Source: Nemertoderma westbladi (taxonomy: Eukaryota; Animalia; Xenacoelomorpha). Taken from it: a stretch of DNA of 64,000 bases. Below, in pieces: positions 28,101-56,866 of the stretch (its first letter is position 1; each line of letters opens with the position of its first letter). The translations under genes and the position numbers were made by a program. Where the stretch lies: NCBI GenBank assembly GCA_032718475.1, contig JAUCBJ010009110.1:21807-85806 (forward strand), read 5' to 3'. Below the pieces are notes generated by a model. It was not told the DNA's origin and did not search any database. It was given only the letters and a program-made list of their open reading frames with translations.

Positions 28101-31100
28101 AATGAGTTTGGGGTGTGGTATTCAGTGGGCGTTATAGAGATGTTAAAACTCAGTAAATGAGTTTGGGGTGTGGTATTCAGTGGGCGTTATAGAGATGTTA
28201 GAACTCCGTAAATGAGTTTGGGGTGTGGTATTCAGTGGGCGTTATAGAGATGTTAGAACTCAGTAAATGAGTTTGGGATGTGGTATTCAGTGGACGTTAT
28301 AGAGATGTTAAAACTCAGTAAATGAGTTTGGGGTGTGGTATTCAGTGGGCGTTATAGAGATATTATAACTCACTAAATGAGTTTGGGGTGTGGTATTCAG
28401 TAGGCGTTATAGAGATGTTAGAACTCAGTAAATGAGTTTGGGGTGTGGTATTCAGTGGGCGTTATAGAGATGTTAGAACTCAGTAAATGAGTTTGTGGTG
28501 TGGTATTCAGTAGGCGTTATAGAGATGTTAGAACTCAGTAAATGAGTTTGGGGTGTGGTATTCAGTGGGCGTTATAGAGATGTTAGAACTCACTAAATGA
28601 GTTTGGGGTGTGGTATTCAGTGGGCGTTATAGAGATGTTAGCACTCAGTAAATGAGTTTGGGGTGTGGTATTCAGTGGGCGTTATAGAGATGTTAGAACT
28701 CCGTAAATGAGTTTGGGGTGTGGTATTCAGTGGGCGTTATAGAGATGTTAGAACTCAGTAAATGAGTTTGGGATGTGGTATTCAGTGGACGTTATAGAGA
28801 TGTTAGAACTCAGTAAATGAGTTTGGGGTGTGGTATTCAGTGGGCGTTATAGAGATGTTAGAACTCCGTAAATGAGTTTGGGGTGTGGTATTCAGTGGGC
28901 GTTATAGAGATGTTAGCACTCAGTAAATGAGTTTGGGGTGTGGTATTCAGTGGGCGTTATAGAGATGTTAGAACTCCGTAAATGAGTTTGGGGTGTGGTA
29001 TTCAGTGGGCGTTATAGAGATGTTAGAACTCAGTAAATGAGTTTGGGATGTGGTATTCAGTGGACGTTATAGAGATGTTAGAACTCAGTAAATGAGTTTG
29101 GGGTGTGGTATTCAGTGGGCGTTATAGAGATGTTAGAACTCAGTAAATGAGTTTGTGGTGTGGTATTCAGTAGGCGTTATAGAGATGTTAGAACTCAGTA
29201 AATGAGTTTGGGGTGTGGTATTCAGTGGGCGTTATAGAGATGTTAGAACTCACTAAATGAGTTTGGGGTGTGGTATTCAGTGGGCGTTATAGAGATGTTA
29301 GAACTCACTAAATGAGTTTGGGGTGTGGTATTCAGTGGGCGTTATAGAGATGTTAGCACTCAGTAAATGAGTTTGGGGTGTGGTATTCAGTGGGCGTTAT
29401 AGAGATGTTAGAACTCCGTAAATGAGTTTGGGGTGTGGTATTCAGTGGGCGTTATAGAGATGTTAGAACTCAGTAAATGAGTTTGGGATGTGGTATTCAG
29501 TGGACGTTATAGAGATGTTAGAACTCAGTAAATGAGTTTGGGGTGTGGTATTCAGTGGGCGTTATAGAGATGTTAGAACTCAGTAAATGAGTTTGGGGTG
29601 TGGTATTCAGTGGGCGTAGTAGAGATGTTAGAACTCAGTAAATGAGTTTGGGGTGTGGTATTCAGTGGGCGTTATAGAGATATTATAACTCACTATATGA
29701 GTTTGGGGTGTGGTATTCAGTAGGCGTTATAGAGATGTTAGAACTCAGTAAATGAGTTTGGGGTGTGGTATTCAGTGGGCGTTATAGAGATGTTAGAACT
29801 CAGTAAATGAGTTTGTGGTGTGGTATTCAGTAGGCGTTATAGAGATGTTAGAACTCAGTAAATGAGTTTGGGGTGTGGTATTCAGTGGGCGTTATAGAGA
29901 TGTTAGAACTCAGTAAATGAGTTTGTGGTGTGGTATTCAGTAGGCGTTATAGAGATGTTAGAACTCAGTAAATGAGTTTGGGGTGTGGTATTCAGTGGGC
30001 GTTATAGAGATATTATAACTCACTAAATGAGTTTGGGGTGTGGTATTCAGTAGGCGTTATAGAGATGTTAGAACTCAGTAAATGAGTTTGGGGTGTGGTA
30101 TTCAGTGGGCGTTATAGAGATGTTAAAACTCAGTAAATGAGTTTGGGGTGTGGTATTCAGTGGGCGTTATAGAGATGTTAGAACTCCGTAAATGAGTTTG
30201 GGATGTGGTATTCAGTGGACGTTATAGAGATGTTAAAACTCAGTAAATGAGTTTGGGGTGTGGTATTCAGTGGGCGTTATAGAGATATTATAACTCACTA
30301 AATGAGTTTGGGGTGTGGTATTCAGTAGGCGTTATAGAGATGTTAGAACTCAGTAAATGAGTTTGGGGTGTGGTATTCAGTGGGCGTTATAGAGATGTTA
30401 GAACTCAGTAAATGAGTTTGTGGTGTGGTATTCAGTAGGCGTTATAGAGATGTTAGAACTCAGTAAATGAGTTTGGGGTGTGGTATTCAGTGGGCGTTAT
30501 AGAGATGTTAGAACTCACTAAATGAGTTTGGGGTGTGGTATTCAGTGGGCGTTATAGAGATGTTAGAACTCACTAAATGAGTTTGGGGTGTGGTATTCAG
30601 TGGGCGTTATAGAGATGTTAGCACTCAGTAAATGAGTTTGGGGTGTGGTATTCAGTGGGCGTTATAGAGATGTTAGAACTCCGTAAATGAGTTTGGGGTG
30701 TGGTATTCAGTGGGCGTTATAGAGATGTTAGAACTCAGTAAATGAGTTTGGGATGTGGTATTCAGTGGACGTTATAGAGATGTTAGAACTCAGTAAATGA
30801 GTTTGGGGTGTGGTATTCAGTGGGCGTTATAGAGATGTTAGAACTCCGTAAATGAGTTTGGGGTGTGGTATTCAGTGGGCGTTATAGAGATGTTAGCACT
30901 CAGTAAATGAGTTTGGGGTGTGGTATTCAGTGGGCGTTATAGAGATGTTAGAACTCCGTAAATGAGTTTGGGGTGTGGTATTCAGTGGGCGTTATAGAGA
31001 TGTTAGAACTCAGTAAATGAGTTTGGGATGTGGTATTCAGTGGACGTTATAGAGATGTTAGAACTCAGTAAATGAGTTTGGGGTGTGGTATTCAGTGGGC

Positions 31101-34100
31101 GTTATAGAGATGTTAGAACTCAGTAAATGAGTTTGTGGTGTGGTATTCAGTAGGCGTTATAGAGATGTTAGAACTCAGTAAATGAGTTTGGGGTGTGGTA
31201 TTTAGTGGGCGTTATAGAGATGTTAGAACTCACTAAATGAGTTTGGGGTGTGGTATTCAGTGGGCGTTATAGAGATGTTAGAACTCACTAAATGAGTTTG
31301 GGGTGTGGTATTCAGTGGGCGTTATAGAGATGTTAGCACTCAGTAAATGAGTTTGGGGTGTGGTATTCAGTGGGCGTTATAGAGATGTTAGAACTCCGTA
31401 AATGAGTTTGGGGTGTGGTATTCAGTGGGCGTTATAGAGATGTTAGAACTCAGTAAATGAGTTTGGGATGTGGTATTCAGTGGACGTTATAGAGATGTTA
31501 GAACTCAGTAAATGAGTTTGGGGTGTGGTATTCAGTGGGCGTTATAGAGATGTTAGAACTCAGTAAATGAGTTTGGGGTGTGGTATTCAGTGGGCGTAGT
31601 AGAGATGTTAGAACTCAGTAAATGAGTTTGGGGTACGGTACTCAGTGGGCGTTATAGAGATGTTAGAACTCACTAAATGAGTTTGGGGTGTGGTACTCAG
31701 TGGACGTTATAGAGATGTTAGAACTCAGTAAATTAGTTTGGGGTACGATACTCAGTGGGCGTTATAGAGATGTTAGAACTCAGTAAATGAGTTTGGGGTG
31801 TGGTATTCAGTGGGCGTTATAGAGATGTTAGAACTCACTAAATGAGTTTGGGGTGTGGTATTCAGTGGGCGTTATAGAGATGTTAGAACTCAGTAAATGA
31901 GTTTGGGGTGTGGTATTCAGTGGGTGTTATAGAGATGTTAGAACTCAGTAAATGAGTTTGGGGTGTGGTATTCAGTGGGCGTTATAGAGATGTTAGAACT
32001 CAGTAAATGAGTTTGGGGTGTGGTATTCAGTGGGCGTTATAGAGATGTTAGAACTCAGTAAATGAGTTTGGGGTGTGGTACTCAGTGGGCGTTATAGAGA
32101 TGTTAGAACTCAGTAAATGAGTTTGTGGTGTGGTATTCAGTGGGCGTTATAGAGATGTTAGAACTCAGTAAATGAGTTTGGGGTGTGGTATTCAGTGGGC
32201 GTTATAGAGATGTTAGAACTCAGTAAATGAGTTTGGGGTGTGGTATTCAGTGGGCGTTATAGAGATATTATAACTCAGTAAATGAGTTTGGGGTGTGGTA
32301 TTCAGTGGACGTTATAGAGATGTTAGAACTCAGTAAATGAGTTTGGGGTGTGGTATTCAGTGGGCGTTATAGAGATGTTAGAACTCAGTAAATGAGTTTG
32401 GGGTGTGGTATTCAGTGGGCGTTATAGAGATGTTAGAACTCAGTAAATGAGTTTGGGGTGTGGTATTCAGTGGGCGTTATAGAGATGTTAGAACTCAGTA
32501 AATGAGTTTGGGGTGTGGTATTCAGTGGGCGTTATAGAGATGTTAGAACTCAGTAAACGAGTTTGGGGTACGGTACTCAGTGGGCGTTATAGAGATGTTA
32601 GAACTCCGTAAATGAGTTTGGGGTGTGGTATTCAGTGGGCGTTATAGAGATGTTAGAACTCAGTAAATGAGTTTGGGGTGTGGTATTCAGTGGGCGTTAT
32701 AGAGATGTTAGAACTCAGTAAATGAGTTTGGGGTGTGGTATTCAGTGGGCGTTATAGACATCTTAGAACTCAGTAAATGAGTTTGGGGTGTGGTATTCAG
32801 TGGGCGTTATAGAGATGTTAGAACTCAGTAAATGAGTTTGGGGTGTGGTATTCAGTGGGCGTTATAGAGATGTTAGAACTCAGTAAATGAGTTTGGGGTG
32901 TGGTATTCAGTGGGCGTTATAGAGATGTTAGAACTCAGTAAATGAGTTTGGGGTGTGGTACTCAGTGGGCGTTATAGAGATGTTAGAACTCAGTAAATGA
33001 GTTTGTGGTGTGGTATTCAGTGGGCGTTATAGAGATGTTAGAACTCAGTAAATGAGTTTGGGGTGTGGTATTCAGTGGGCGTTATAGAGATGTTAGAACT
33101 CAGTAAATGAGTTTGGGGTGTGGTATTCAGTGGGCGTTATAGAGATATTATAACTCAGTAAATGAGTTTGGGGTGTGGTATTCAGTGGACGTTATAGAGA
33201 TGTTAGAACTCAGTAAATGAGTTTGGGGTGTGGTATTCAGTGGGCGTTATAGAGATGTTAGAACTCAGTAAATGAGTTTGTGGTGTGGTATTCAGTAGGC
33301 GTTATAGAGATGTTAGAACTCAGTAAATGAGTTTGGGATGTGGTATTCAGTGGGCGTTATAGAGATGTTAGAACTCACTAAATGAGTTTGGGGTGTGGTA
33401 TTCAGTGGGCGTTATAGAGATGTTAGAACTCACTAAATGAGTTTGGGGTGTGGTATTCAGTGGGCGTTATAGAGATGTTAGCACTCAGTAAATGAGTTTG
33501 GGGTGTGGTATTCAGTGGGCGTTATAGAGATGTTAGAACTCCGTAAATGAGTTTGGGGTGTGGTATTCAGTGGGCGTTATAGAGATGTTAGAACTCAGTA
33601 AATGAGTTTGGGATGTGGTATTCAGTGGACGTTATAGAGATGTTAGAACTCAGTAAATGAGTTTGGGGTGTGGTATTCAGTGGGCGTTATAGAGATGTTA
33701 GAACTCAGTAAATGAGTTTGGGATGTGGTATTCAGTGTGCGTTATAGAGATGTTAGAACTCAGTAAATGAGTTTGGGGTACGGTACTCAGTGGGCGTTAT
33801 AGAGATGTTAGAACTCTCTAAATGAGTTTGGGGTGTGGTACTCAGTGGGCGTTATAGAGATGTTAGAACTCAGTAAATTAGTTTGGGGTACGATACTCAG
33901 TGGGCGTTATAGAGATGTTAGAACTCAGTAAATGAGTTTGGGGTGTGGTATTCAGTGGGCGTTATAGAGATGTTAGAACTCACTAAATGAGTTTGGGGTG
34001 TGGTATTCAGTGGGCGTTATAGAGATGTTAGAACTCAGTAAATGAGTTTGGGGTGTGGTATTCAGTGGGCGTTATAGAGATGTTAGAACTCAGTAAATGA

Positions 34101-34806
34101 GTTTGGGGTACGGTACTCAGTGGGCGTTATAGAGATGTTAGAACTCACTAAATGAGTTTGGGGTGTGGTATTCAGTGGGCGTTATAGAGATGTTAGAACT
34201 CACTAAATGAGTTTGGGGTGTGGTATTCAGTGGGCGTTATAGAGATGTTAGAACTCAGTAAATGAGTTTGGGGTGTGGTATTCAGTGGGCGTTATAGAGA
34301 TGTTAGAACTCAGTAAATGAGTTTGGGGTGTGGTATTCAGTGGGCGTTATAGAGATATTAGAACTCAGTAAATGAGTTTGGGGTGTGGTATTCAGTGGGC
34401 GTTATAGAGATGTTAGAACTCACTAAATGAGTTTGGGGTGTGGTACTCAGTGGGCGTTATAGAGATGTTAGAACTCAGTAAATTAGTTTGGGGTACGATA
34501 CTCAGTGGGCGTTATAGAGATGTTAGAACTCAGTAAATGAGTTTTGGGTGTGGTATTCAGTGGGCGTTATAGAGATGTTAGAACTCACTAAATGAGTTTG
34601 GGGTGTTGTATTCAGCGGGCGTTTTAGAGATGTTAGAATTCACTAAATGAGTTTGGGGTGTGGTACTCAGTGGGCGTTATAGAGATGTTAGAACTCAGTA
34701 AATGAGTTTGGGGTGTGGTACTCAGTGGTCGTTATAGAGATGTTAGAACTCAGTAAATGAATTTGGGGTGTGGTACTCAGTGGGCGTTATAGATATGTTC
34801 GTACTC
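25196..34806. repeat. 55-bp tandem minisatellite array, ~175 copies
   Basis: Monomer tggtattcagtgggcgttatagagatgttagaactcagtaaatgagtttggggtg. Phase is kept exactly from 25201 to 34441 (9240 bp = 168 x 55). Confidence 0.98.
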
Positions 34807-35201
34807 TATAGTGGTGAACAGTATCGGCATGTTGAGCATTCATACAGTAGATGGTTAAGAGGTGTGTAATTGTAGCTGTTTAAAATGCTATGAAAATATG
34901 TTTCGTTTACAATTATTATTTGCACAAGATTTTTAACGAACTAATCTTATTCTACAGAATGAAAAATGTTATGTATTGAGATAGAGCTTAAAGAAGAGCA
35001 TACTATGTCGAATAAATAGTGAGTTACCAACTTACAACCAATTAACACTGAATAAGATTTTCAGAGTAATTATCAGGTATGTATAATTTAAAATAACTAT
35101 TATTATGTTATATTGACTTTTAAACTTTCAATTTTCCAATTCTCGAAAAAACCCAGTTCGTATTGGTAAACAAATAATATAATATATCATTGAGTAGTAA
35201 A

Positions 35202-38200
35202 ATGGCTAAAAGAAAACAAAAATGTAGTAAGTGCGGAAGCTCAAAACATAATATTAGAACATGTTCAAAGGGGAAGGGTATAACAGTTACTTTTATGGAA
35301 CAAATGGAACAGGTTGAGCAACCTCATGGGGAGGAAGAAAACCCGGAGGAACGAATGGCAAATGAAGAGGGGCCTCCAGTGGATGAAGAGCCCCAGGAAG
35401 AACAGATTGAACATGGGGAGGGGCATCAAGGGGAGGAACGGATGGATAATGGGGAGGAAGGTCAAGGCATGGAACAGCAACATGAGGAACGGATCGATAA
35501 TGGGGAGGGAGGTCAAGGTGTGGAACAGCAACAGGAGGAACGGATGGATTATGGGGAGGAAGGTCAAGGGGTGGAACAGCCACCGGAGGAACGGGTGGAT
35601 AATGGGGAGGGAGGTCAAGGCGTGGAACAGCAACAGGGGGAACGGATGGATAATGGGGAGGAAGGTCAAGGGGTGGAACAGCCACCGGAGGAACGGGTGG
35701 ATAATGGGGAGGGAGGTCAAGGCGTGGAACAGCAACAGGGGGAACGGATGGATAATGGGGAGGGAGGTCAAGGCGTGGAACAGCAACAGGGGGAACGGAT
35801 GGATAATGGGGAGGAAGGTCAAGGGGTGGAACAGCAACAGGGGGAACGGATGGATAATGGGGAGGAAGGTCAAGGGGTGGAACAGCCACAGGAGGAACGG
35901 ATGGATAATGGTGAGGAACAGCATCAGGAGGAGCAGAGAGAATGGGAGGAGGTTCAACAAAGAGGGGAAAAAAGGGGTCAGGATAGCCAAGGAGGTCAAC
36001 GAAGGAGAAGAAGAGAAGGAACACCTCCGGATATTCAATCAGACCCAGGTACACAACAGGAAGAAACAGCCAGAGAGGGGGGCCAGAACCAGAGTAGGAC
36101 AGGGCCATCAAGAACGCAATTTATTGTACTGCAGGGCTCAAATAATATTCCTCCACAAGAATGGCTAGATACAACCTGTCAATTAAATGGGCTTCATATC
36201 CAACCCAATCAAGGTGGTGGAGATTGTCTATACTACTCTATATTGCAAGGTTTAGACTTGCTTAATTTCAACCGGCACTATACTGTGGCATCCCTACGCA
36301 ACCTCTCTGCTAATGAGATGGCTAGAAACCCTCTCCCATATTCAAACCGTTTCCTTGTACCAACAAATGCTGAAATAGCAGGTATGTATCCACGACCTGC
36401 AAATAATTTTAATAATTTTATTTTGGCAACAAGAGGAGGAGAATGGGGAACCGAATTAAATATAATGTCACTTGCAATTCACCTGCCGGCGTCTATCTGT
36501 TTGATATCAACGGAAACTCGAGGCGTTCTACACTTTGGCAATAGCCCAGACGTTATTTACATTGCCCACTGGCCCGGTCATTTTGCTGCACTCCTACCTG
36601 GAACAGGTAATCATAGTAATTTCATACCGCATACTCAGCACCCTCAGAGTTCCACAGGAAGTTGTCAACCATCAACTTCAAATATCAGACAACAATCCAC
36701 CACTCGAAACCAATCTCAGAATGCAGGTTCTTCATATCATCGTCCACCACCTTGTAATCGAACAGGTACATATGGTAACCTTCCAGAAAGAAGATCACCA
36801 CAGCCAAATACCATAAACCCAAATCATCCACCAAATAATGGTCACACTCAGAACCCTTCAACTCAAGTTCATCCAACTACATCTTCAGTACAACAAAATA
36901 TATCCTCAACAGAACAACCAACTTCAAATCTGACAGCACCAACTACAACTCCATCGGCTGTAAACATGACATTGCTATGTGAATGTTGTCAACGTCATTC
37001 TACTGCTATTTATGACATTCAAGTTGCCATAAGAGGATCTTGTAAAGGAAAGAAATATGGCAGATTAGTGCAGAGAAGACAATACTCACTTCCTGTATGT
37101 TGTGCACAGTGCAATTCCTACTTAAACCAAAATAAAACTGATATACGTAGAAATTGGAATATAATGTGGCCAGCTGTATTAAATTCATGTCTGTCAGCAG
37201 TTTCATTAATGCCAGAAGATAAACATATAGAACTATGGAAACAACTACCAACTAATATACAGGAGATGTGGTCGTCGTTATCTTTACCTCCATCAGGGAT
37301 ACCAATATTTAGAGATTTCACACCACAACTCAGGGAATTCAACCAAGATATTAAAACTAATACATTGGGTGGACTCAGGAAAGCCATGAACAGGGAATGC
37401 TTCCCTGAAGTTAAGTGTCCTCTTGGTTGCTGGCAATGGGTTGATATGTGTAAGTACATACCTTTTATAGATTACCTCGCATATGCCAACATTGTGTCCC
37501 TTCCCAATTCTGATCGAGAGTACTTTCGCTCAGCCAGACCAGACTGGCCAACACTTCCACGCCAATATTTGCTTACATGGACAATAAATCCAGGTGTGGT
37601 CATTGATGATGATAACGGTCTTTCTGTGTTAGTATGCAAAGACCATAAATCAACTAAACAACAAGTGATACATATACAAGAAAACCCTTTTTATGAAGAA
37701 GGTGCTCTTCAGTCATATGAGGTATTTGCACCAACAACACTTACACCAAACATTGTCAGACAGGGACGTCTGAATAAGTGGAATAGCTCCAACTATGTTG
37801 TGAATTGCATTGGGGGTTATCATGGGTTGTCTACATTCACACTTGGTGCTTCTGAATTAGATCTTCCTCCAATTACTCAGCAGCAAGTATTGAGAGAGGG
37901 TTTATGCCTTAAATTTAGGAATGACATTCGAGAGACCTATCTCAACACTACCTGGGGAGGTGCAAGCGGTATAGTAAAATCAAAATTAACTGGTCTCATG
38001 AACAGTGGAAGGACCCCTGAAGGTATCGCTCTTAAGAAATGTCTTGCTGGAGGAAGTTATATGTCCATTTGTGATACATTCCATGCTTGGCAAATAAGTC
38101 GACTTCAGAATGAGAGACAAGAAGCTCAAAGCAGCAACATAAAATATATATTTCAGGCTAAAAGCCTTATATTATCAATTGTCCATCCAATGAATGATGT

Positions 38201-41200
38201 TGGGGCTTTTCCATTTAAAGTAAACATCAATCATATTCATGATTGTCTTGGTATTGCCATTACCACCATCCTTCTATATAACCGAAGGATCCACCAACTT
38301 TGTCTTCAGAAGTATATATCTGAAAATGATAATCTCTTGGGTTGGATACTTGCATCAGTAGCTTCTATATCTGGATTAAATCATCCATCGAGATCCTGCA
38401 ACAAGAATGTTGTCTATACAAAGATATCAACTGATCCTTGTGTATTAACCACCCCAGATGCACCATTTATGGACAAGGTTGTTAATCTACTGCTCCGACT
38501 ATCAACTAAGTCGACACTGCGTACAATGGAGCAAATAGTAAGTCGCACAGAAACTCGTTCAGACTTGTATGATGTGATTATATGTAGGAACTCTTCATCC
38601 CAAGGGATTCAACCAAAAACACGTATTGGCGAATTCAAACTGATGTTTGTATTGACAGAGGATATAGAGGACACAATAATATTTCGGTGGGAGCCAGACA
38701 TGCGGTTTTGGTGTATTGGGAATGGAGGTTCTAGAGTGGCAACTACAGCATGCAATAAATCATCCTGGTTTCATACTTGGCGGCTAGCCATCTACGTAAA
38801 TACAAACACTAATGAACATCGTGATGATACCATCAAAAGATCTCTTGGTGGACAGCGACAGCTCACTTGTGCAAAACACAGCCTATACCTTATAAATGAG
38901 CCCAGAGTATCCAATGCTACATGTTCAGTTGGCAATTGCCGAAAACCAGCAAATCACCGGTGTCCCGATGGAATATTGTCATACCATTGCCTTGTTGCTG
39001 TATGTCTTAAGCATTTCAGATTGTATGCTATTGGAAATGCCTCACCAATCACAATCAGATATCGTCAATCTCCACTATGTAATAACCAACCACTAGAACC
39101 ATGTACTAATCAAGGCGAAATTGACAGTGATGCAGAATTGGAAGATCTCCTTCTAGAAGTCAATATTGACAATAATATTAATAGTGATGAGGAGCATGAT
39201 AATTCTGGTTTTGATATAATTATTCCTGAAAATGCAGATCAAGATTCTGATTGGGAATATCTGGAAGATCTCCAGAACTTCTTAACAGATGAGAACACCT
39301 TACCATCAGGAGATATACCATCTTCCGCTAGTAGCAGGAAGCAAATATTCCATGTTACAGGATCTCAAAGTTTTCCAAGTCACTGTCTCCTCAATGATAT
39401 ATATGGATTGTTACATCGTGATCTTTCTAAGCATCCGGGTGCTAAGAAAGCACAATTGTTAAATGAAATTGTTGCCAAGAATTCTGCACCATCAACATCC
39501 TTGTTATACCTTGAAGGTAATATATTTCCAACAACTTTTTGGTACAATCACTTTGATGCTATTGTGGGTGCGATACCTCATCATATATTTACCGAGATGT
39601 CAACTGCAATTTCAAGACATCATGTCTCATCTAACCAGGATATGCTCACAATTCGATTGCGTGATGGTGACTTATCCACTTCTCATGACTTGAACTATTT
39701 ACATTGGGCTGCAGATGTGCGCATAAATTCCAATTTAAATAAGCGTCCAACTACTGTATTTTTTAATCGTGGTCTAGAATTCCTTGATGAATCCCGTGCA
39801 ACAAAAAGTGATGTCCATGATACACCTCTGGAATTTGAGGAATCAAACAGTAGCAGGGTTGTGAAAGAACTGGCAGCCCTTATTAACAAATATCCCTGGT
39901 CATACTTTTTTACTATAACAGCCAATGAAACTTCAACCATGGGACTTGCACCAATCATTTACAAAATGAAGAATTTCTGTGAGGCCAATGATATGGAATA
40001 TAGTGACATATATGATGCAAATGTATTGCTACTATGTCGGGCATGGGAACGAGTGGCCCAATACATCTTAGACTATATAGAAACTAGTCACGAAGAACGG
40101 CTTGGGCCAGTACAACATATGTTTGCCCGAGCTGAGTTTCAGGACAAAGGTGCGAAGGGAAACAAATGCCATTTCCATGGTGGCATTTCTTTATACCCAG
40201 AACCGATACAGACCACAATGGACCGTGTCACATGTGATCCCGATCGCCTGCCTTTTGGTCCAGATGACTTCCATAAACTTCTACATGCTGGTATTGTCGA
40301 CTCTTGGCAGGACTTCCATGAGGCCAAAAGCATAGTTGAAATGGTCACTGTTCATAACTGTAAGGCAGCGTCAGAACGTTGTCACAAACGCAAGGATAAG
40401 GATGGCAATAAAATCTGCAGAGTACCATCTCATCCCACAAGTTCTTCCAATTGGTTTCAGGAAAAGAAAGACCTTTATTCCAAGGAAATCTACAATATAT
40501 TGGAAGATATTGGACTTGCTAAAAGAGTATTGAATAAAGAGTACCAGCTGGAATGGCAACTGGCACCAAATCTGACTGCAGGCCGTTACCACTATTCCAC
40601 AAGACACCCACCAACTTACTTACCGACTATTGCTGAAATGGCCTTAGCCTTACGAAGTTCATTTAATTGTCAAGTAACAGACCGCAAGTTTTCTAGCTCA
40701 TACTTGTCGAAATATATAGGTGGGGTTGAGGAGAGGAGGCAAGTGAAAGTATATGGCACAAAGAACCCCGATATAGTAAGGACTGAAGTAGGTGACCAAG
40801 AAAATGTAAAAATATCTGGTGTTAGGATAAACCAAGCAATTAAGAAAGATATTGCTTCAAATTCTCGTGAGATTGGAATACCAGAGCTTGCAAGATTTGC
40901 ACTTGGTTATCCTTATACAAGATGTACAGCCGACTTTATCCACATAAGCACTCTTCCTCCTGAATATCGCTCTGCTGTTTGTGCAAAGAAATCGAATGAA
41001 CACATTGAGGGTTCATTTGGCAGCTATATCTCTGGTATCGAATTAAGAAATAATTTACCTCTTTGGCGCCACTTTACTCATAGCCAACAAAGGCTTATTC
41101 GAGAGTATGTATCTTCGGATTATAGATTAGGGAATACTGAGCGATTCAATATTCGTCCACCAGAGATTTGCATATTCAACAAGCTCGTAGACTATCATGA

Positions 41201-43916
41201 AATTTTCATCATAAAGAATAAATTACCATCACATTCTGTTAATGATGACATTCAGCAACAGCCATGGATAGATGGTTATAATAACATTGTTAAACTACGC
41301 AGCTGTTCTATTAACAGGGCGATTGACTTTGTAGAAAAGCAACCCCAGAGAGAAGGCAAGGAAGAAGTGTTAAATCTTCTTAATGAAATACAGGATGAAC
41401 ATGTTGATGGAAATCTCCATAAACGCTTTGTTGCCCAGAGCAAGGAAACTATTGCAGTTATACCGAATATAGGGGCAAATCATCGAATTAAATTTTTATA
41501 TCATATCATATTAACTCTTGGGGAGTTTACTACTGAATTAGATGTTATGGAAGTTGCTTCCTTTCCAATGGCATTCCAGAAAGCAGGTCTAATAGCTGAT
41601 TATAATAATCCTACAAAGGAAGAAGCAAACACCATCCTCAAAAGATATGTAAATGAACAGCTCCAGACTTATTCCTTTGGTGCAAATCAGTTCCAGAAAT
41701 ATTTAAGTAGTGCTAAAAGTGCTATAGATGAGATTCTACTCTCAGGTGGTCGCATATCTGCAGATGTCCCTTCAGTTTCATACATAGCTCTGCGTGACGA
41801 AGCTGCAGAACGAATCCATACTATTGAAAGATCTCGGAAACATTATCTCGTTGAGACCAACCATGGCGATCTTTCCACAAAGATGCAGCTCCCACCAATG
41901 GATGCTTTCATGGAGGCAACATTTGATTATCCCATTAACTGGGATCCACAACTCCCAGTAGCACTACACCAATCAATGCCTTCTCAAGCAGAGCAGAACA
42001 GTGCACTACAAACTATTAAACAAGTTGTCCACCAGTACTTGAATCCATCAACGAACCAGTTGCCTAAGTTTTTATTAATAACTGGACCACCAGGTTGTGG
42101 CAAGACTTTGCTCATTCAAATTGCCACCTTGTATGTTATATCGCGAGGTCTCAACGCTGCTTTACTTTCACTGACAAGTGAACGTTCCAGAACACTAGGC
42201 GGATTTCATATCCATATTGCCTTCCCAGTCCCAACTAGAAGTTTAAAGAGTAGTCACCCTCACATTCTGGCAAGACAAACTATCCAAAGTCTTAAAAAAG
42301 ATCCAATGAAACTACTTCTTCTAAAACGTACAAATGTATTTATCCTGGAAGAAGTAGGACTCATCTCTGCAGAATTTTATGGTGTTCTGGACACAACCAT
42401 GAAGAATATCATGAGTAATGATTTACCATTTGGAGGTAAACTACTTATTATGAATGGTGATCAACACCAGTTACCCCCTATAGATGGCCGTCCTATATTT
42501 ATGTCTACAAATGTTATTACTTCTTTCAAAGTGATTCAGCTGAAACATTATGTCCGTGCTGCATCAGATATTCATCTTCAAAATACTCTGGAATTGATGA
42601 GGCAGACCACCATTCCTCCATCAGAACAAAAACAGATTGTAAATAACATAATGGCTAATGCCAAGTTTGTTACCTCATGGAATGAGGTACCCCAAGAAGC
42701 TGTTAGAATTGTTGGAACAAGGAAAGCAGAGACAAAGGTAGTTAAGGAATTCCTGCAGCGCAAGATCTCTGACCAAAATGTTCGAACTGTCTCCTCCCTT
42801 GCGAAAGATGAAGTACAGCATCACTATGACTGGGCTCCAGCAGGCGCCCATGTGACACTACAACTAAATCGCCACTGTTTAGAGCCAGAGGAATTAATTC
42901 TCTTTGAAGGAGCCGTTACTAGATTAACCCGTAACCATCAACATGGGAACACCCAATACTCCCAAGGCCAAGTTGCAGTGGTTCAGCACATCCCACAACA
43001 ATTCAATGACCAGGCACAGATAACTGTAGCTTTGGTTCCCCCAGGTGTGCGGAATATATTGCCAGTTCAAGCAACTTGGCAAAGAATTTTGCTAGGACGC
43101 ATTACAACTATGCCATCAGTTGTAGGAGTGCAACTTCTTCAAGGTCGAAGAACACAGTATCCCCTACGATACTTTATTGCCAACACAATACACCGAATAA
43201 TGGGTGAAACATGCCCAATAGCGGCGACACAAATATCATCATCAGATCGTATATTTAGATTATGGGAGAGGGAGCAACTTTTGGTACTTATATCGCGGGT
43301 TCCTAGTTTCCAGAATCTGTATTTTGTTGGTCTGAGAGCAGATACACGCATGGCATTAGCTGAAACATTATCACGTGACTCTATGTGGGCTGGCCCTATT
43401 GAAGAACGCCTGACAGCTCTTGACATTCAGAACACCAATCCACAACGTGTTGTAACAGATGAACAACATCCATTGCGACCGTTTTATAGAGATATTCCAG
43501 AATCAGAAACTGGTTATGTGTACATGTTAATATCTACAGCACATCCATCTGTAAGCTATGTAGGGCAAACATCCAGGAGTTTGTTGACTAGACTGCGGGA
43601 ACATAATAGCGGCAATGGCTCCATATTTACAGACCGCACAGAGTTCCATCCTTGGGCTATTTTTGCCTATATATGCCAATTTCCTACAGAGTCGGAAGAG
43701 GAAAGAAATGCACGAAGGTTGGATGTTGAGAGATTCATCCACAGAAATATCCGCCGAAACAGTGGACCCCAATACGTTCTAAATCAATTAATACGTATTG
43801 TTGCGGAATATAATAGAATATATAGAACCTCTTTAGTTGTCCATCAATGCGGATCTCTCTCAAATCCTGCAAGAAGTGGAACTGTTGAGTTTGAGGATGA
43901 TGCACCCGGTGGCTAA
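35202..43916 (+). CDS. Helitron-like RepHel polyprotein (~2900 aa): CCHC knuckle, OTU protease, HUH-Y2 Rep, PIF1-like helicase, GIY-YIG endonuclease
   Basis: Uninterrupted 8.7-kb ORF, with the first ATG at 35202 in aaaATGg context (the track starts at TTG 35190). Motifs: CSKCGSSKHNIRTC; GGGDCLYYSI..WGTELNI..GHF; YFFTITAN..AEFQ..HFH..YLSKY; GPPGCGKT, ILEEVG, GDQHQLPP, TIHRIMGET, LISRV; GYVY..SYVGQT..RLREHNSG. Confidence 0.93.
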   Translation: MAKRKQKCSKCGSSKHNIRTCSKGKGITVTFMEQMEQVEQPHGEEENPEERMANEEGPPVDEEPQEEQIEHGEGHQGEERMDNGEEGQGMEQQHEERIDNGEGGQGVEQQQEERMDYGEEGQGVEQPPEERVDNGEGGQGVEQQQGERMDNGEEGQGVEQPPEERVDNGEGGQGVEQQQGERMDNGEGGQGVEQQQGERMDNGEEGQGVEQQQGERMDNGEEGQGVEQPQEERMDNGEEQHQEEQREWEEVQQRGEKRGQDSQGGQRRRRREGTPPDIQSDPGTQQEETAREGGQNQSRTGPSRTQFIVLQGSNNIPPQEWLDTTCQLNGLHIQPNQGGGDCLYYSILQGLDLLNFNRHYTVASLRNLSANEMARNPLPYSNRFLVPTNAEIAGMYPRPANNFNNFILATRGGEWGTELNIMSLAIHLPASICLISTETRGVLHFGNSPDVIYIAHWPGHFAALLPGTGNHSNFIPHTQHPQSSTGSCQPSTSNIRQQSTTRNQSQNAGSSYHRPPPCNRTGTYGNLPERRSPQPNTINPNHPPNNGHTQNPSTQVHPTTSSVQQNISSTEQPTSNLTAPTTTPSAVNMTLLCECCQRHSTAIYDIQVAIRGSCKGKKYGRLVQRRQYSLPVCCAQCNSYLNQNKTDIRRNWNIMWPAVLNSCLSAVSLMPEDKHIELWKQLPTNIQEMWSSLSLPPSGIPIFRDFTPQLREFNQDIKTNTLGGLRKAMNRECFPEVKCPLGCWQWVDMCKYIPFIDYLAYANIVSLPNSDREYFRSARPDWPTLPRQYLLTWTINPGVVIDDDNGLSVLVCKDHKSTKQQVIHIQENPFYEEGALQSYEVFAPTTLTPNIVRQGRLNKWNSSNYVVNCIGGYHGLSTFTLGASELDLPPITQQQVLREGLCLKFRNDIRETYLNTTWGGASGIVKSKLTGLMNSGRTPEGIALKKCLAGGSYMSICDTFHAWQISRLQNERQEAQSSNIKYIFQAKSLILSIVHPMNDVGAFPFKVNINHIHDCLGIAITTILLYNRRIHQLCLQKYISENDNLLGWILASVASISGLNHPSRSCNKNVVYTKISTDPCVLTTPDAPFMDKVVNLLLRLSTKSTLRTMEQIVSRTETRSDLYDVIICRNSSSQGIQPKTRIGEFKLMFVLTEDIEDTIIFRWEPDMRFWCIGNGGSRVATTACNKSSWFHTWRLAIYVNTNTNEHRDDTIKRSLGGQRQLTCAKHSLYLINEPRVSNATCSVGNCRKPANHRCPDGILSYHCLVAVCLKHFRLYAIGNASPITIRYRQSPLCNNQPLEPCTNQGEIDSDAELEDLLLEVNIDNNINSDEEHDNSGFDIIIPENADQDSDWEYLEDLQNFLTDENTLPSGDIPSSASSRKQIFHVTGSQSFPSHCLLNDIYGLLHRDLSKHPGAKKAQLLNEIVAKNSAPSTSLLYLEGNIFPTTFWYNHFDAIVGAIPHHIFTEMSTAISRHHVSSNQDMLTIRLRDGDLSTSHDLNYLHWAADVRINSNLNKRPTTVFFNRGLEFLDESRATKSDVHDTPLEFEESNSSRVVKELAALINKYPWSYFFTITANETSTMGLAPIIYKMKNFCEANDMEYSDIYDANVLLLCRAWERVAQYILDYIETSHEERLGPVQHMFARAEFQDKGAKGNKCHFHGGISLYPEPIQTTMDRVTCDPDRLPFGPDDFHKLLHAGIVDSWQDFHEAKSIVEMVTVHNCKAASERCHKRKDKDGNKICRVPSHPTSSSNWFQEKKDLYSKEIYNILEDIGLAKRVLNKEYQLEWQLAPNLTAGRYHYSTRHPPTYLPTIAEMALALRSSFNCQVTDRKFSSSYLSKYIGGVEERRQVKVYGTKNPDIVRTEVGDQENVKISGVRINQAIKKDIASNSREIGIPELARFALGYPYTRCTADFIHISTLPPEYRSAVCAKKSNEHIEGSFGSYISGIELRNNLPLWRHFTHSQQRLIREYVSSDYRLGNTERFNIRPPEICIFNKLVDYHEIFIIKNKLPSHSVNDDIQQQPWIDGYNNIVKLRSCSINRAIDFVEKQPQREGKEEVLNLLNEIQDEHVDGNLHKRFVAQSKETIAVIPNIGANHRIKFLYHIILTLGEFTTELDVMEVASFPMAFQKAGLIADYNNPTKEEANTILKRYVNEQLQTYSFGANQFQKYLSSAKSAIDEILLSGGRISADVPSVSYIALRDEAAERIHTIERSRKHYLVETNHGDLSTKMQLPPMDAFMEATFDYPINWDPQLPVALHQSMPSQAEQNSALQTIKQVVHQYLNPSTNQLPKFLLITGPPGCGKTLLIQIATLYVISRGLNAALLSLTSERSRTLGGFHIHIAFPVPTRSLKSSHPHILARQTIQSLKKDPMKLLLLKRTNVFILEEVGLISAEFYGVLDTTMKNIMSNDLPFGGKLLIMNGDQHQLPPIDGRPIFMSTNVITSFKVIQLKHYVRAASDIHLQNTLELMRQTTIPPSEQKQIVNNIMANAKFVTSWNEVPQEAVRIVGTRKAETKVVKEFLQRKISDQNVRTVSSLAKDEVQHHYDWAPAGAHVTLQLNRHCLEPEELILFEGAVTRLTRNHQHGNTQYSQGQVAVVQHIPQQFNDQAQITVALVPPGVRNILPVQATWQRILLGRITTMPSVVGVQLLQGRRTQYPLRYFIANTIHRIMGETCPIAATQISSSDRIFRLWEREQLLVLISRVPSFQNLYFVGLRADTRMALAETLSRDSMWAGPIEERLTALDIQNTNPQRVVTDEQHPLRPFYRDIPESETGYVYMLISTAHPSVSYVGQTSRSLLTRLREHNSGNGSIFTDRTEFHPWAIFAYICQFPTESEEERNARRLDVERFIHRNIRRNSGPQYVLNQLIRIVAEYNRIYRTSLVVHQCGSLSNPARSGTVEFEDDAPGG
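35223..35264 (+). other. CCHC zinc knuckle (CX2CX4HX4C)
   Basis: CSKCGSSKHNIRTC, preceded by a basic KRKQK stretch that may be an NLS. Confidence 0.85.
35436..35917 (+). repeat. In-frame 51-bp coding minisatellite (17-aa ERMDNGEEGQGVEQQQG, ~9.5 copies)
   Basis: Visible in both DNA and protein. It explains the overlapping shadow ORFs at 35265-36168. Confidence 0.95.
36190..36600 (+). other. OTU-family cysteine protease (deubiquitinase-like) domain
   Basis: GGGDCLYYSI (Cys codon at 36225), LR helix, WGTELNIMSLA, and GHF (His codon at 36579) match the OTU layout. OTU domains are established in Helentrons. Confidence 0.85.
39890..40730 (+). other. HUH-Y2 rolling-circle replication initiator (Rep) domain
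   Basis: Motif 1 YFFTIT (39903), motif 2 AEFQ...HFH (40131-40178), a Helitron-like HNC..RC..CRVP segment, and motif 3 YLSKY (40701-40715). Confidence 0.88.
41980..43330 (+). other. PIF1-like superfamily 1B DNA helicase domain
   Basis: Q-motif-like SQAEQ, Walker A GPPGCGKT (42084), Walker B ILEEVG (42348), PFGG..GDQHQLPP, HYVRA, YPLR..ANTIHRIMGET and QLLVLISRV. Confidence 0.92.
43505..43800 (+). other. GIY-YIG endonuclease domain (SLX1/YhbQ-like)
   Basis: GYVYMLISTAHPSVSYVGQTSRSLLTRLREHNSG, then FT...HPW and a candidate catalytic Glu in RRLDVERFIH. Confidence 0.85.
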
Positions 43917-44042
43917 ATTTTATTCATAATAGCTCCAAAATTTACGTTTTAAATTATCACCTGCACCATTCCTCTAGATTCCAAGTAATACCACTATCCC
44001 TACTTCATCTACAATATATTCTCCCATAATTAGCCATTGAGC

Positions 44043-45128
44043 AAGGTGACTTTATTTTGCCCGTTTGTATATAATGCTTTATCAATTTTATCACAATCAA
44101 TTTGCTCTATTTTAACATTTTTCCCTTGTATGAGGTGAGTGTATGTTTGCCCGTACATGTGTACAATGATTTGCTAATTCATACCACAATCCATTTTGCT
44201 CCAATTTCACATTTTGCCATGTATGAGGTGAGTGGATGTTTGCCCATACTTGTGTAGAATGCTTTGCCAATTCATACCACAATCCATTTTGCTCCGCTTT
44301 CATATTTTGCCCAAGTATGAGGTGAGTGTATGTTTGCCAGTACTGGTGTAGAATGCTTTACCAATTATACCGCAATCCATTTGCTCCACTAAATATTTTG
44401 CCATGTATGAAGTGAGTGTATGTTTGCCCGTACTTGTGTACAATGTTTTGCCAATTCATACCACGATCCATTTTGCTCCAATTTAATATTTTGCCAAGTA
44501 TGAGGTGAGTGTATGTTTGCCAGTACTGGTGTAGAATGCTTTACCAATTATACCGCAATCCATTTGCTCCACTAAATATTTTGCCATGTATGAAGTGAGT
44601 GTATGTTTGCCCGTACTTGTGTACAATGTTTTGCCAATTCATACCACAATCCGTTTTGCTCCAATTTCATATTTTGCCAATATGAGGTGAGTGTATGTTT
44701 GCCCGTACATGTGTACAATGTTTTGCCAATTCATACCACAATCCATTTTGCTCCAATTTCACATTTTGCCATGTATGAGGTGAGTGGATGTTTGCCCATA
44801 CTTGTGTAGAATGCTTTGCCATTCATACCACAATCCATTTTGCTCCAATTTCACATTTTGCCATGTATGAGGTGAGTGTATGTTTGCCCGTACTTGTGTA
44901 GATTGTTTTAACAATTCATACCACAATTACTTTTGCTCCACTTTAATATATTTCCCTAGTGCGAAGTAAGTGTATGTTTGCCTGTACTTGTGTAGAATGC
45001 TTTGCCTATTATACCACAATACATTTGCTCCACTTTAACACTAGTACCTAGTACGACGTGAGTGTATGTTTGCCCGTACTAGTGCCAAATAATTTACAAA
45101 ATCATATCACAGTCCGTTTACTCAACAT
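44043..45128. repeat. ~94-bp tandem repeat, ~11 diverged copies, directly 3' of the ORF
   Basis: tatgaggtgagtgtatgtttgcccgtacttgtgtagaatgctttgccaattcataccacaatccattttgctcc... The same family recurs at 50950-63496. Confidence 0.95.
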
Positions 45129-45130
45129 TT

Positions 45131-45390
45131 ATGATCTATCCTCTTTTATCAGTCAGCCGGTGGTTGTTGGTTGTCTATGCAGAGCCTCTTGTGTTCTGGA
45201 ATATTCTATCCTCCTTTATACAAACAAAAATTAATGATCTATCCACTTCTAGACCATTCTGCTCGTGGTTGTTGTGTATGTTGCACCTCTTGTGTTCTGG
45301 AATATTTTATCCTCTTCTAATAGAACCACCCATTAATTTATATATCCTCTTTCAGACCAGTTTTCTTGTGGTTGTTGTGTATGCTGCACC
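45131..45390. repeat. Degenerate monomers of the 107-bp satellite (also at 46458-46738)
   Basis: gctcgtggttgttgtgtatg..cttgtgttctggaatattttatcctctt, in the same orientation as the left array. Confidence 0.9.
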
Positions 45391-47321
45391 TCATTAATTA
45401 CTTAGATCAACTTAAAATATTTTGCCCTAGTGCGGGATGAGTGTAAAGTTTGCCTGTACTTCTTGTGTAGAATGCTTTGCCAATTTATACCTCAACCGTT
45501 TTCTCAACTTTAATGTTTTTCCCTAGTATTTACTATAATTATTAGTTAATTAGATTATATTACCTATATTAAATAAACACATTATTCACATTTAATTATA
45601 TATCCTAATAGGTATGGAATCTTTGACGTACATATTTGTCAAATACATAATATTACATAATATATAATATTGAATAATACATAATTACAATAAATATTTT
45701 ATATTTTAATTAATTTTTATAAAAATTTAAAAGAAAATGTAAAAATTAAGTATTTTGTGTGTAAGTACTACTAACTAGTACTATATGGCAATGATGATTG
45801 ATATCAGATAATGATAATGGACATAATTGAATCAATAATGTCACAATTGTCTTCATATGAAGATTATATATTCTGAGCCATATTGATTACTAATCATTCA
45901 TATATAAAATTACTTACTACTGTAGTTATAAATTATTTAAGAGCAATATCAGTATTTTAGTATTGGTCACCTTCCTGTTAGTTTAATATTCAATTGCCAA
46001 TCATGCAGTTCCTATTTATGCTACTTATAGTTTACTATTATATTTCCTTGCTCGCATTGACCCTATGTTTTATAATACTTCCAATAAAACCATAATAATT
46101 TGTAGGCCTTCTTGTATGCATGTCATTTCTTATGTAATTATTGCCGAATTTGTACGAATATATATTATCCTAGTAAATATATTAAAAAATACAAAAAAAT
46201 GCATATAATAAATCAAGAATAACTAATAAGTAAATAGAATAGATTGCATAGTCAATAAACTTTAATAACAATATATTATAAGTAAAAAACTAATATAAAA
46301 CTGCAATAACAACATAAATGATTAGCTAATTTTGAGTAAATACAAAAAGAAAATCCCACCACCAAGTACGCCATGCTATTTAGTCCACAAACATATTTAG
46401 ATGAAGTATCCTCCTAGCATCACATTGTTCTTAGCCTAACCTAATCCGCATCCCAAACTCGCGGTTGTTGTGTATGCTGCACCTCTTGTGTTCTGGAATA
46501 CTCGCGGTTGTTGTGTATGCTGCGCCACTTGTATTCTGGAATATTTTATCCTCTTTTAGTCGAACAACCTTAATGATCTATACTCTTTTACTGTAGACCA
46601 GTCCGCTCGTGGTTGTTGTGTATGCTGCACCACTTGTGTTCTGGAATATTTTACCCTCTTTTAATCGAACCACCAATTAATTTATATAATATCCTCTTTT
46701 AGACCAGTTTTCTTGTGGTTGTTGTGTATGCTGCACCTAATTAATTACTTAGATCCACTTAAAATAGTGGATTACACTCAGCGGGATGAGTGTAAAGTTT
46801 GCCTGTACTTCTTGTGTAGAATGCTTTTATAGTAATTACTACTATAATTATTATTTAATTAGATTCTATTACCTATATTAAATAAACACATTATTCACAT
46901 TCAATTATATATCCTAATAGTTATGGAATCTTTGCCGTACATATTTGTCAAATACAAAATATTACATAATATATAAAATTGAATAATACTTAATTACAAT
47001 AAATATTTTATATATATTTTAATTAATTTTTACAAAAATTTAAAAGAAATTGAAAAAATTAAGTATTTTGTGTGTAAGTACTACTAACTAGTACTATATG
47101 GCAATGATGATTGATATCAGATAATGATTAATAGACATAATTGAATCAATAATGTCACAATAGTCTTCATATGAAGATTATATATTCTGAGCCATATTGA
47201 TTACTAATACTAATCATTCATATATAAAATTACTTACTACTGTAGTTATAAATTATTTAAGAGCAATATCAGTATTTTAGTATTGGTCACCTTCCTGTTA
47301 GTTTAATATTCAATTGCCAAT
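45261..47321. repeat. ~730-bp direct duplication (45261-46001 and 46605-47321)
   Basis: Both copies run satellite monomers, a 94-bp remnant and an AT-rich tract, ending at caattgccaat. They are highly similar with small indels. Confidence 0.9.
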
Positions 47322-47639
47322 AAGCAATGTAGATTGCATAGTAATTAAAGTATTGTTTTTATATACTATAACTTTCCATTTATTTTATAATTTTGTGGAC
47401 CATAAGGCCGCCTCAAAGTTTCTTTAATTTCTCAACTTTAATCTAATATTATATTCCACTTTCAAGGCAGTAATATTTTAGTGACATGAAGTCATTGTAT
47501 GCTTTCACATATCCGGTTCCGGTACTGGTGATGTTTTTTACATTTTTGTGATAAACATATTGAAAATTATATTCATGCTGCCCGTTTTTATGTGGCAAAA
47601 GAGATTTTATTAATAATCAGCAATATATAATTAATAAAT

Positions 47640-48825
47640 ATTTTTTAGATAACTTATTTCGAGTTCTTAACTAAATAAGTACACTTTAGTATAACTAATC
47701 ATCCTTCTTATTATAGCAATTAAGTTAATTATAGCTCTATTATTCTATACATGGTTGTCAATATTTTTGTTATATACTTATTATTTCTACTGCCTATATT
47801 AACCAACTGTATAAAATAGAGGAAACTTTATTATACCTATTATAGCGCAGCTCTTTATATCAATAACTATTTGTAATTTATATTTTCATCACATTAATTC
47901 AGATACCCGTTTCAAGCAAAACCTTTAAAATGATTAATATAATTTCAGATTTTTGTGAAATTACAATTGCTATGGCCGAATATAAATGCACCCATTTATA
48001 TTTAATGTCAAATGCTATGTAAATAGCAAATATTGAACATAATCCTATGTTGTTGAAATATATATCCGTTATTTTCATATTATATGATCAAATATTATAT
48101 TATTAGAAAAAAAAAAACAAGGAAAGTATTATATTATTATTGGGGTGCACCTAGATATTGGTGATCAGGGTGCACTTTGCAATATGCAGGGTTATTATCG
48201 GGGTGCATTGTGGTTGTAACATTCATTTCATTTAATTTCTTGTGACAGGTGGGTGGGAGTGGTTATGGGGTAGTGGCAATGCACCTAGCGATGTTAACCT
48301 TGTCAGATCGTGGCAAGTCATATTATATATCAGAATAAATGACATACTGGATGCTCTCTATGTTATTAAACATTACTTTACTCAAAATCCATTTCTGCTA
48401 GGGCCTTTCTTTCTAGATATTGGATTGAAATGTATTTGTATAATTAACAAGAATTACATATCTAAATGTATAAATTTGCATATTATTCAGATATAGCAAT
48501 ATAATATATAATTTCCCTGAAATGTGAAATTATATTCATTATTTTATAGTTCTTGCTTGAAACGGGTATCTGAATTGATATGATAAATATATAAAAGTCA
48601 AATATTAATTTATATATTTAGCTACACTACAATATATATAATAAAGTTATCTTTATTTTCTACGTTTGGTTATTATAGGCGATAATTATAATATGTGTAT
48701 AACAAAAAGATTATCAGTCATTATAGTATCATATAGCTATATTTCAGTTAATTGTTATATTAATTTTGATGATTTATTTCATTTCATACTGATTTAGTTA
48801 AGAACTCAAAATACGGTGTCTATGA
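47640..48825. repeat. Long diverged inverted repeat (~370-bp arms, ~450-bp spacer)
   Basis: aattcagatacccgtttcaagcaa (~47896) is the exact reverse complement of ttgcttgaaacgggtatctgaatt (~48553). gagttcttaactaaat (~47661) pairs with atttagttaagaactc (~48792). Confidence 0.85.
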
Positions 48826-56766: not shown

Positions 56767-56866
56767 NNNNNNNNNNNNNNNNNNNNNNNNNNNNNNNNNN
56801 NNNNNNNNNNNNNNNNNNNNNNNNNNNNNNNNNNNNNNNNNNNNNNNNNNNNNNNNNNNNNNNNNN
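56767..56866. other. Assembly gap (100 N placeholder)
   Basis: A run of exactly 100 n. Confidence 0.99.

Follow-up and report, generated by a model that had tools for sequence, protein, structure and literature searches.

We analysed a 64,000-nucleotide stretch of Nemertoderma westbladi DNA (contig JAUCBJ010009110.1), hereafter the window, and found in it an intronless open reading frame (ORF) of 2,904 codons (8.7 kb) at 35202–43916 on the forward strand. This frame almost certainly encodes a Helitron-like transposase of 2,904 aa, in which a HUH-Y2 Rep endonuclease and a PIF1 helicase (together RepHel) are followed by a predicted SLX1-like GIY-YIG nuclease domain. The ORF scan showed that its sole stop codon lies at the end, that it is the only ATG-started ORF of more than 300 aa within 34000–45000, and that every other stop-to-stop frame in the window is at most 294 aa long. 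At the composition of the window, the chance of 2,904 codons without a stop is about 10^-82.

The Rep endonuclease (39909–40715, +) was recognised from its motifs and predicted fold. Motif 1 lies at aa 1570–1575, motif 2 comprises H1657 and H1659 (within E1645-F-Q...H1657-x-H1659), and motif 3 comprises Y1834 and Y1838 (Y1834-x-x-K-Y1838). The Pfam model Helitron_like_N scored 18.1 bits (E 0.003) on the window protein, under its curated cut-off, and an AlphaFold model of the region, built from the family alignment, had a mean predicted local distance difference test score (pLDDT) of 79.7. The sole Foldseek match of this model at E ≤ 0.001 was Helraiser 7LCC, a weak one (E 2.7e-6, template modelling score 0.32). 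The PIF1-family SF1B helicase (42069–43316, +) matched Pfam PIF1 at aa 2273–2455 with 57 bits (cut-off 25.9) and has its Walker A motif at aa 2295 and its Walker B motif at aa 2383. A 678-residue AlphaFold model of the helicase and tail, likewise from the family alignment, had a mean pLDDT of 92.9, and the structure search matched the helicase fold to Pif1 7bil (Z 26) and Helraiser 7lcc (Z 20.7). The helicase profile, too, had Helraiser 7LCC as its best match by sequence. The order of a HUH-Y2 Rep and then a PIF1 helicase in one protein is that of the Helitron-like superfamily.

Upstream of the Rep, the protein begins with a CCHC zinc knuckle (35223–35264, +; aa 8–21, CX2CX4HX4C), followed by a 51-bp in-frame tandem repeat at 35432–35918 (+) with 9.5 copies of an acidic, Q/E/G-rich 17-aa unit. 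The length of this repeat differs among copies or alleles, a contig in two runs being 342 bp shorter. An OTU-like cysteine protease domain with C342 and H460 lies at 36213–36587 (+); its Pfam score in the window protein was under the curated cut-off (20.8 bits, E 6e-4), and in two relatives (P0005 from Styela, and P0028) it was above. It is followed by a family-specific Cys-rich domain of about 360 aa (36978–38057, +), in which C593, C596, C634, C637, C739, C743, C812 and H824 are kept in at least 85% of 46 aligned rows, and for which there was no Pfam match and no usable match in the protein atlas. The cysteine positions of a second cluster at 38868–39005 (+; aa 1223–1268) suggest that it is likely a zinc-binding module. 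An earlier note on this DNA had proposed an intact 8.7-kb frame with a knuckle, OTU, Cys-rich region, Rep, PIF1 and GIY-YIG, and the motifs were indeed found at the places it named.

The GIY-YIG tail and its family

The tail domain lies at 43512–43751 (+) with its catalytic-type residues intact. Pfam GIY-YIG matched aa 2771–2833 with 32.9 bits (cut-off 22.6), and the residues in question are Y2774, Y2786, G2788, R2797, H2801 and E2843. A profile of 73 family sequences scored 35–44 bits with Slx1 and At-HIGLE chains, as against 22 bits with a bacterial UPF0213 protein. Among the best 50 matches of the structure search through 48,161 chains, those centred on the tail were just Slx1 6seh (Z 10.3, root-mean-square deviation (rmsd) 2.1, 104 residues), HIGLE 7wme (Z 10.3, rmsd 2.9) and Slx1 7cq2 (Z 9.7), where the Z values belong to the 678-residue model of helicase and tail and not to an isolated domain. 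Residues Y2774, Y2786, G2788, R2797 and H2801 align with Y14, Y26, G28, R36 and H40 of 4xlg, and from its spacing E2843 would be the counterpart of E79 of Slx1. Slx1 cleaves branched DNA, and E79 is catalytic, according to the parts of the source consulted (PMC6902002). Judged against solved PDB structures, the predicted C-terminal domain is a GIY-YIG domain of the SLX1 subtype with Slx1 and HIGLE as its closest solved relatives; Pfam, profile and fold thus agree with the earlier assignment of this tail to GIY-YIG.

We then asked how widely the fusion is shared. The first search returned 12 full-length relatives with 27–45% identity, including five Styela clava proteins from five loci; Pfam found GIY-YIG in 12/12 at E < 0.01, and above the cut-off in 10/12. 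A second search used a GIY-YIG-free query (aa 1560–2759), which avoids circularity, against 1.84 billion cluster representatives, and it returned 316 clusters at E ≤ 1e-30, a number that rose to 823 at E ≤ 1e-10. Among the best 150 of the 316 clusters, 129 contain the end of the helicase and 113 run at least 90 aa beyond it. The family hidden Markov model (HMM) detected GIY-YIG behind the helicase in 109 of these 113 proteins with room for it (two of the 150 were also part of the training alignment of the HMM). In 18 members hand-picked for spread, Pfam detected the domain in 15, of which 13 were above the cut-off. Of the three without a match, one was a degenerate copy, one broke off just past the helicase and one had no such domain.

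The linker between helicase and GIY-YIG measures 47–94 aa (median 53, n=120). Moreover, pairwise GIY-YIG identities correlated with helicase identities across 64 proteins (Spearman 0.47; none of 2,000 permutations was as high). Spacing and correlation therefore favour a single old fusion inherited with the helicase, and the comparison points to the GIY-YIG fusion as one old event and a family trait. The Rep motifs are also widely kept in the best-match proteins with a whole Rep (EFQ..HxH in 73/87, YxxKY in 80/87), and the upstream feature common to the family is the Cys-rich domain. OTU was found in 5 of the 56 best-match proteins that hold the N-terminal conserved domain, only nine of which have at least 200 residues upstream. 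The CCHC knuckle occurs in nine other fetched family proteins, seven of them from Styela, and is rare otherwise. Judging by this distribution, OTU and the knuckle are local additions and not family traits; the architecture in the earlier note, which included both, holds for the window protein and does not extend to the family.

The family lineages are about 25–45% identical to each other, and most members are metagenome or Logan proteins. Named hosts are few: Styela clava, and an atlas cluster with four members of known phylum, mostly diatoms. Further domains were seen behind GIY-YIG in two members, namely a Ulp1/C48 protease domain (P0101, aa 2483–2661, 41 bits) and a weak OTU match (P0045, aa 2335–2375), so that protease domains appear to have been acquired more than once. 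In two metagenome contigs (L002, ORF at 7170–8834, −; L003, ORF at 10967–13324, −), a split RepHel-GIY-YIG gene is followed directly downstream by a long ORF in the other orientation. Neither Pfam nor the PDB gave a match for the L002 ORF, which left its candidacy as RPA without support, and the long ORF of L003 had no Pfam match.

Copies and surrounding repeats

Three DNA runs from two samples contain the stretch, and one of them may be the source of the assembly. The contig depth of the ORF was about 120–160 in X1 and 78–113 in X2, compared with 25–36 and 11–30, respectively, for the unique DNA at 20.6–25.2 kb, which makes the ORF about 4–5 times as deep as the unique flank in the two samples. 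ORF-like depth spans about 34.8 kb to about 49.1 kb, and the copies seen in read contigs are 90–99% alike. Among the ORF variants listed, 15 of 26 were synonymous, compared with 22% expected (p 8e-5; p 0.008 at 33%), and none introduced a stop. These results suggest several copies under purifying selection, and the recent activity claimed in the earlier note gains support in that the copies look recent and selected. X5, a further run labelled as the same species, contains hardly anything of the element and its satellites (33500–51500). This does not prove that they are absent: the cause may be mislabelling, the library type or a true absence.

The frame is embedded in repeats. To its left, a 55-bp satellite of 175 copies (25200–34806) stops 395 bp before the ATG, with DNA of single-copy depth just left of it, and this satellite may be the 5' internal array of the element. 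To its right, the 3' flank (43917–49100) has ORF-like read depth and probably lies within the element. This flank contains a 92-bp repeat in 11 copies (44044–45084) that begins 127 bp past the stop codon, repeats of 103–107 bp, and an 850-bp partial duplication (45170–46001 and 46510–47321). It also holds a 360-bp inverted repeat with 75% complementarity (47646–48822), which could be an old foldback or miniature inverted-repeat transposable element (MITE) insertion carried by the element.

Related repeats extend through much of the remaining window. At 1–20539, a 107-bp satellite of 192 copies is 80–89% like repeat copies of the 3' flank. At 50161–64000, ORF-less units of 2.0–2.5 kb run head to tail with six spacer copies and are built from 94-, 34- and 104-bp repeats, the first and last of which are related to the 3' flank; the 34-bp repeat shares only a 12-bp match with 48,948–48,959, and we claim no link there. 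The tandem units are possibly a non-autonomous derivative. Because repeats are shared with the 3' flank, and there is a precedent in Paramecium (see below), the satellites and ORF-less units may have been carried or amplified by the element. A 68-bp repeat at 22181–24061, with an inverted pair of arrays (22370–22505 and 23364–23985), reached a summed contig depth of up to 10^5–10^6 and therefore appears to be a separate, extremely abundant host repeat family. Rfam gave no matches in 20000–54000.

Several points caution against reading this locus as a mobile element with countable copies. Contig depth is not copy number, and we read it as several copies only; the 26 ORF variants were among 40 of 663 variant rows. 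No empty site, polymorphic insertion or circle junction was found, and scans for inverted repeats, hairpins and telomere repeats, together with read joints and loose ends, revealed no convincing terminus. In the two groups of Helitron-like elements (HLEs), the ends are TC...hairpin-CTRR (HLE1) or short asymmetric terminal inverted repeats with a TT target (HLE2), and hairpin and repeat scans of the window located neither. A depth drop near 49.1–49.7 kb was considered as the right end and rejected, as it coincides with stretches skipped as repeats. The window has no tandem TTAGGG, CCCTAA or TTAGG arrays and one CCTAA pair; the ciliate C4A2 repeat was outside this search. No RNA run was listed as containing the stretch, which says nothing on expression. 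Since neither termini, an empty site or a circle junction nor RNA was found, we only infer mobility.

Placement among Helitron-like elements

We compared the family with 141 reference proteins. The HLE2 references were 120 Helentron-type proteins with Pfam DUF6570 and/or apurinic (AP) endonuclease labels, all at least 45% identical to one seed, a set to which subgroups a, c and d and the proto-Helentrons do not belong. The other 21 references were open frames on contigs of metagenome-assembled genomes (MAGs), labelled HLE1 from what we take to be the canonical Helitron motif; they contributed only four helicases and 10 Reps to the trees. A motif scan of viral contigs yielded nothing but short phage-type Reps, and ten of these 31 served as outgroup. 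These phage-type Reps (L004–L034) have no helicase and carry an EFQxRGxPHxH motif as in Helitron Reps. The 21 contigs behind the HLE1 set (L035–L055), which carry canonical Helitron Rep motifs, several in frames of 1,400–1,600 aa, stand in bacterial genome records; the likeliest source is eukaryotic DNA that contaminates the MAG bins.

In the tree of helicases (24 family rows out of 100 eligible, 12 HLE2 rows out of 81 and four HLE1 rows), each group split off with support of at least 100/99. In the Rep tree (20 family, 10 HLE2, 10 HLE1 and 10 phage rows), the family was supported at 93/95, and HLE1 plus HLE2 at only 90/64. The family thus falls outside the sampled Helentrons and on a branch separate from HLE1 in both trees. 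Cross-scores told the same: the median family Rep scored 15 bits with the HLE2 model and 14 bits with the HLE1 model, compared with 33–58 bits between HLE1 and HLE2, and the median family helicase scored 49 and 40 bits, respectively, compared with 95–105. By this measure, the family is about equidistant from HLE1 and the Helentron references, and farther from both than they are from each other.

Domain content differs as well. The AP endonuclease (EEP) model matched none of 185 family-side proteins (a set that includes three unrelated 36-aa cluster members) and 107 of the 141 references, and the window protein had no Pfam match to it, so the C-terminal nuclease that marks Helentrons was not found. 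DUF6570, which marks HLE2 upstream of the Rep, matched none of the 185 and 90 of the 141, with no Pfam match in the window protein or its relatives, and hhalign gave a probability of 1.3% for DUF6570 against the Cys-rich domain. Conversely, the GIY-YIG model matched none of the 141 references. These comparisons indicate that the family is very probably a clade distinct from HLE1 and Helentrons. The earlier proposal of a distinct lineage that acquired a second nuclease independently is in keeping with the trees, the cross-scores and the missing AP endonuclease; its framing as a Helentron with a swapped nuclease is not, as the family has no DUF6570 and lies about as far from the Helentron references as from HLE1.

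The placement has its weak sides. Approximately unbiased (AU) tests allow the family to be sister to HLE2 (p 0.16) or HLE1 (p 0.40), and as neither is rejected the root position is open. In addition, the HLE2 set represents one subgroup, the groups were each gathered by a search of their own, and the outgroup is where long branches join.

It is possible, though doubtful, that the family has already been catalogued, as the HelenSM92 group, a HELIANO unclassified cluster, the Paramecium clade or a Repbase family, which would bear on novelty and be compatible with the reading that we favour below. HELIANO reports that the HLE2 family HelenSM92 has captured a GIY-YIG; it also describes four or more extra clusters and leaves elements unclassified in 19 genomes, sponges and polychaetes among them (PMC11417382). 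The third clade of Paramecium, with ORFs of 3,052–3,592 aa wrapped in satellites, resembles our locus (PMC13085455), and the AU tests allow a position next to HLE2. Against this, GIY-YIG is not in HELIANO Table S11 of stably carried domains and appears in one text mention and one supplementary legend, Styela is absent from the HELIANO files examined (PMC11417382), and the family has no DUF6570, the HLE2 marker of HELIANO. For Paramecium, the text and supplements examined do not mention GIY (PMC13085455), and a short coding stretch in Fig. S7C reads by eye R-Y..R-P-x-x-L-E, which is Helentron-like, where the family has F-x-x-R-P-P-E-L.

The RepHel-GIY-YIG fusion is not described in the parts consulted of PMC6431247, PMC12910113, PMC3627910, PMC10288648 and PMC8788227. 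Our literature search on Helitrons with GIY-YIG, SLX1, new lineages, diatoms, tunicates, Perkinsus and Styela clava, whose coverage did not extend to Repbase, Dfam or subscription journals, gave no description of such a clade in the texts as far as they were available. The family is probably a large, old, little-described and uncatalogued Helitron clade, to which HelenSM92, the unclassified HELIANO elements or the Paramecium clade may yet belong. The novelty suggested earlier is reduced in that GIY-YIG in a Helitron-like family had been mentioned once in the text consulted (PMC11417382).

Putative role of the nuclease and comparison with known systems

With moderate confidence, we favour the reading that the window protein is an autonomous rolling-circle transposase of a large, distinct Helitron-like clade, whose SLX1-like domain would cut branched or flapped strand-transfer DNA. 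In Helraiser, as far as described in the parts consulted (PMC5876387), the Rep nicks, the helicase displaces a strand, the ends circularise and the strand is transferred. By homology, the Rep tyrosine would nick one strand, the top one, at the element's 5' end and remain bound, and the PIF1 helicase would then displace the nicked strand. The strand ends would be joined into a circle, and the strand then transferred into the target. The GIY-YIG domain, about 50 residues behind the helicase, might act on rolling-circle products or where the element inserts and trim a flap or junction there, a task that other Helitrons would leave to host enzymes. Taken by itself, the assignment of branched-DNA processing to this domain by analogy is, in our judgement, evenly balanced.

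Two findings weigh against this assignment. The tail has the fold, the catalytic-type residues and the HN-G-G..T..PW..GF signature in common with SLX1 and At-HIGLE nucleases, and differs from them in being fused to a transposase. It also has no counterparts of the branch-binding K21/R22 and the DNA-binding R35 of Slx1 (roles as given in the parts consulted of PMC6902002), and neither a RING domain nor an SLX4-type partner was detected with it, so SLX1 specificity cannot be assumed. Second, 27 of 107 aligned tails retain no more than one of the residues R, H and E, and cutting is therefore not needed in every lineage.

That the domain instead nicks the DNA of the target or donor and determines the insertion preference, as the GIY-YIG of Penelope elements is known to do, seems unlikely. 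It occupies the position, just behind the helicase, that the AP endonuclease has in Helentrons; nicking of the target has been proposed for that enzyme and is still hypothetical in the parts consulted (PMC4067079), and the missing Slx1 branch-binding residues would also fit nicking. However, its nearest relatives of solved structure are structure-selective enzymes, no obvious extension for sequence recognition is present, and the Helraiser Rep carries out strand transfer without a second nuclease, according to the parts consulted (PMC5876387).

Less probable again, at the level of a distant outsider, is that the domain is kept chiefly for a non-catalytic use, as a DNA-binding or structural cap for the helicase, and that its cutting is incidental. 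The degenerate tails fit such a cap: they retain a flanking Y/S/N/P/GF scaffold, and on a FastTree tree of 64 whole Rep and helicase rows (13 degenerate) the degenerate state requires at least five changes. Many degenerate members still have the HUH, YxxKY and Walker motifs. However, Y, G, R, H and E are all kept in 78 of the 107 tails across lineages about 25–45% identical, which argues for long selection for catalysis, and the window copy belongs to this intact type. Since the catalytically degenerate members come from several lineages, the nuclease would probably be an accessory rather than a required enzyme. If host nucleases stood in for it, the catalytic residues could go while the fold stayed, as in several sub-lineages, in line with the trimming role that we favour.

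It is very improbable that the frame is a domesticated gene of the host or the replicase of a virus or plasmid: the long intact frame under purifying selection, the lack of located ends and the near lack of the stretch in X5 would suit it, but multi-copy depth with copies 90–99% alike, several Styela paralogs, broken relatives in metagenome contigs, the embedding in satellite DNA, the absence of IMG/VR relatives in two pattern scans and a plasmid search whose sole match was a 141-aa helicase stretch all speak for a transposon.

An independent second fusion at the same position, of a nuclease with branched-DNA-cutting relatives, makes it testable by what means Helitrons complete their strand transfer and what some of them need a second nuclease for, and sub-lineages with live and dead active sites provide natural controls. 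Because the family's Reps score only about 14 bits with the HLE1 and HLE2 models and Helitron_like_N is below its cut-off in this copy, annotation tools likely overlook the family or take its members for Pif1 or GIY-YIG genes of the host, and hundreds of clusters at 50% identity suggest a sizeable unannotated share of eukaryotic mobile DNA. Tentatively, we suggest a further major rolling-circle clade beside HLE1, HLE2 and the Paramecium group, ranging from tunicates to diatom-type protists, which current models miss, whose ancestral SLX1-like nuclease would process its own intermediates, and which would seed satellites and ORF-less tandem derivatives.

Among known systems, HelenSM92 of Sphagnum magellanicum is, like the window element, Helitron-like with a GIY-YIG domain; by its description, it differs as a capture by a single HLE2 family whose terminal inverted repeats are short and whose sites are TT, and the HELIANO text consulted gives no position for its GIY-YIG (PMC11417382). 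The Paramecium HLE clade of a 2026 paper likewise stands apart from HLE1 and HLE2, with satellite-wrapped ORFs of 9–10 kb and ORF-less derivatives that share the satellites; compared by description, it differs in inserting into telomeric repeats and in that GIY-YIG is unmentioned in the parts consulted (PMC13085455). Canonical Helitrons (HLE1), represented by Helraiser 7LCC, have a HUH-Y2 Rep and PIF1 in the same order. The window protein is about twice as long, with an extra Cys-rich domain and GIY-YIG, and in a single-sequence comparison no more than about 210 aa of its helicase matched 7LCC, with 38 bits. The Helentrons (HLE2 subgroup b) likewise have one ORF with a Rep, PIF1 and a second nuclease right after the helicase, and share with the window element an upstream OTU in some members and tandem repeats inside the elements (PMC4067079, in the parts consulted). 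They differ in that their nuclease is of the EEP fold and accompanied by DUF6570, whereas the window family has an SLX1-like GIY-YIG domain, a separate branch and very low cross-scores.

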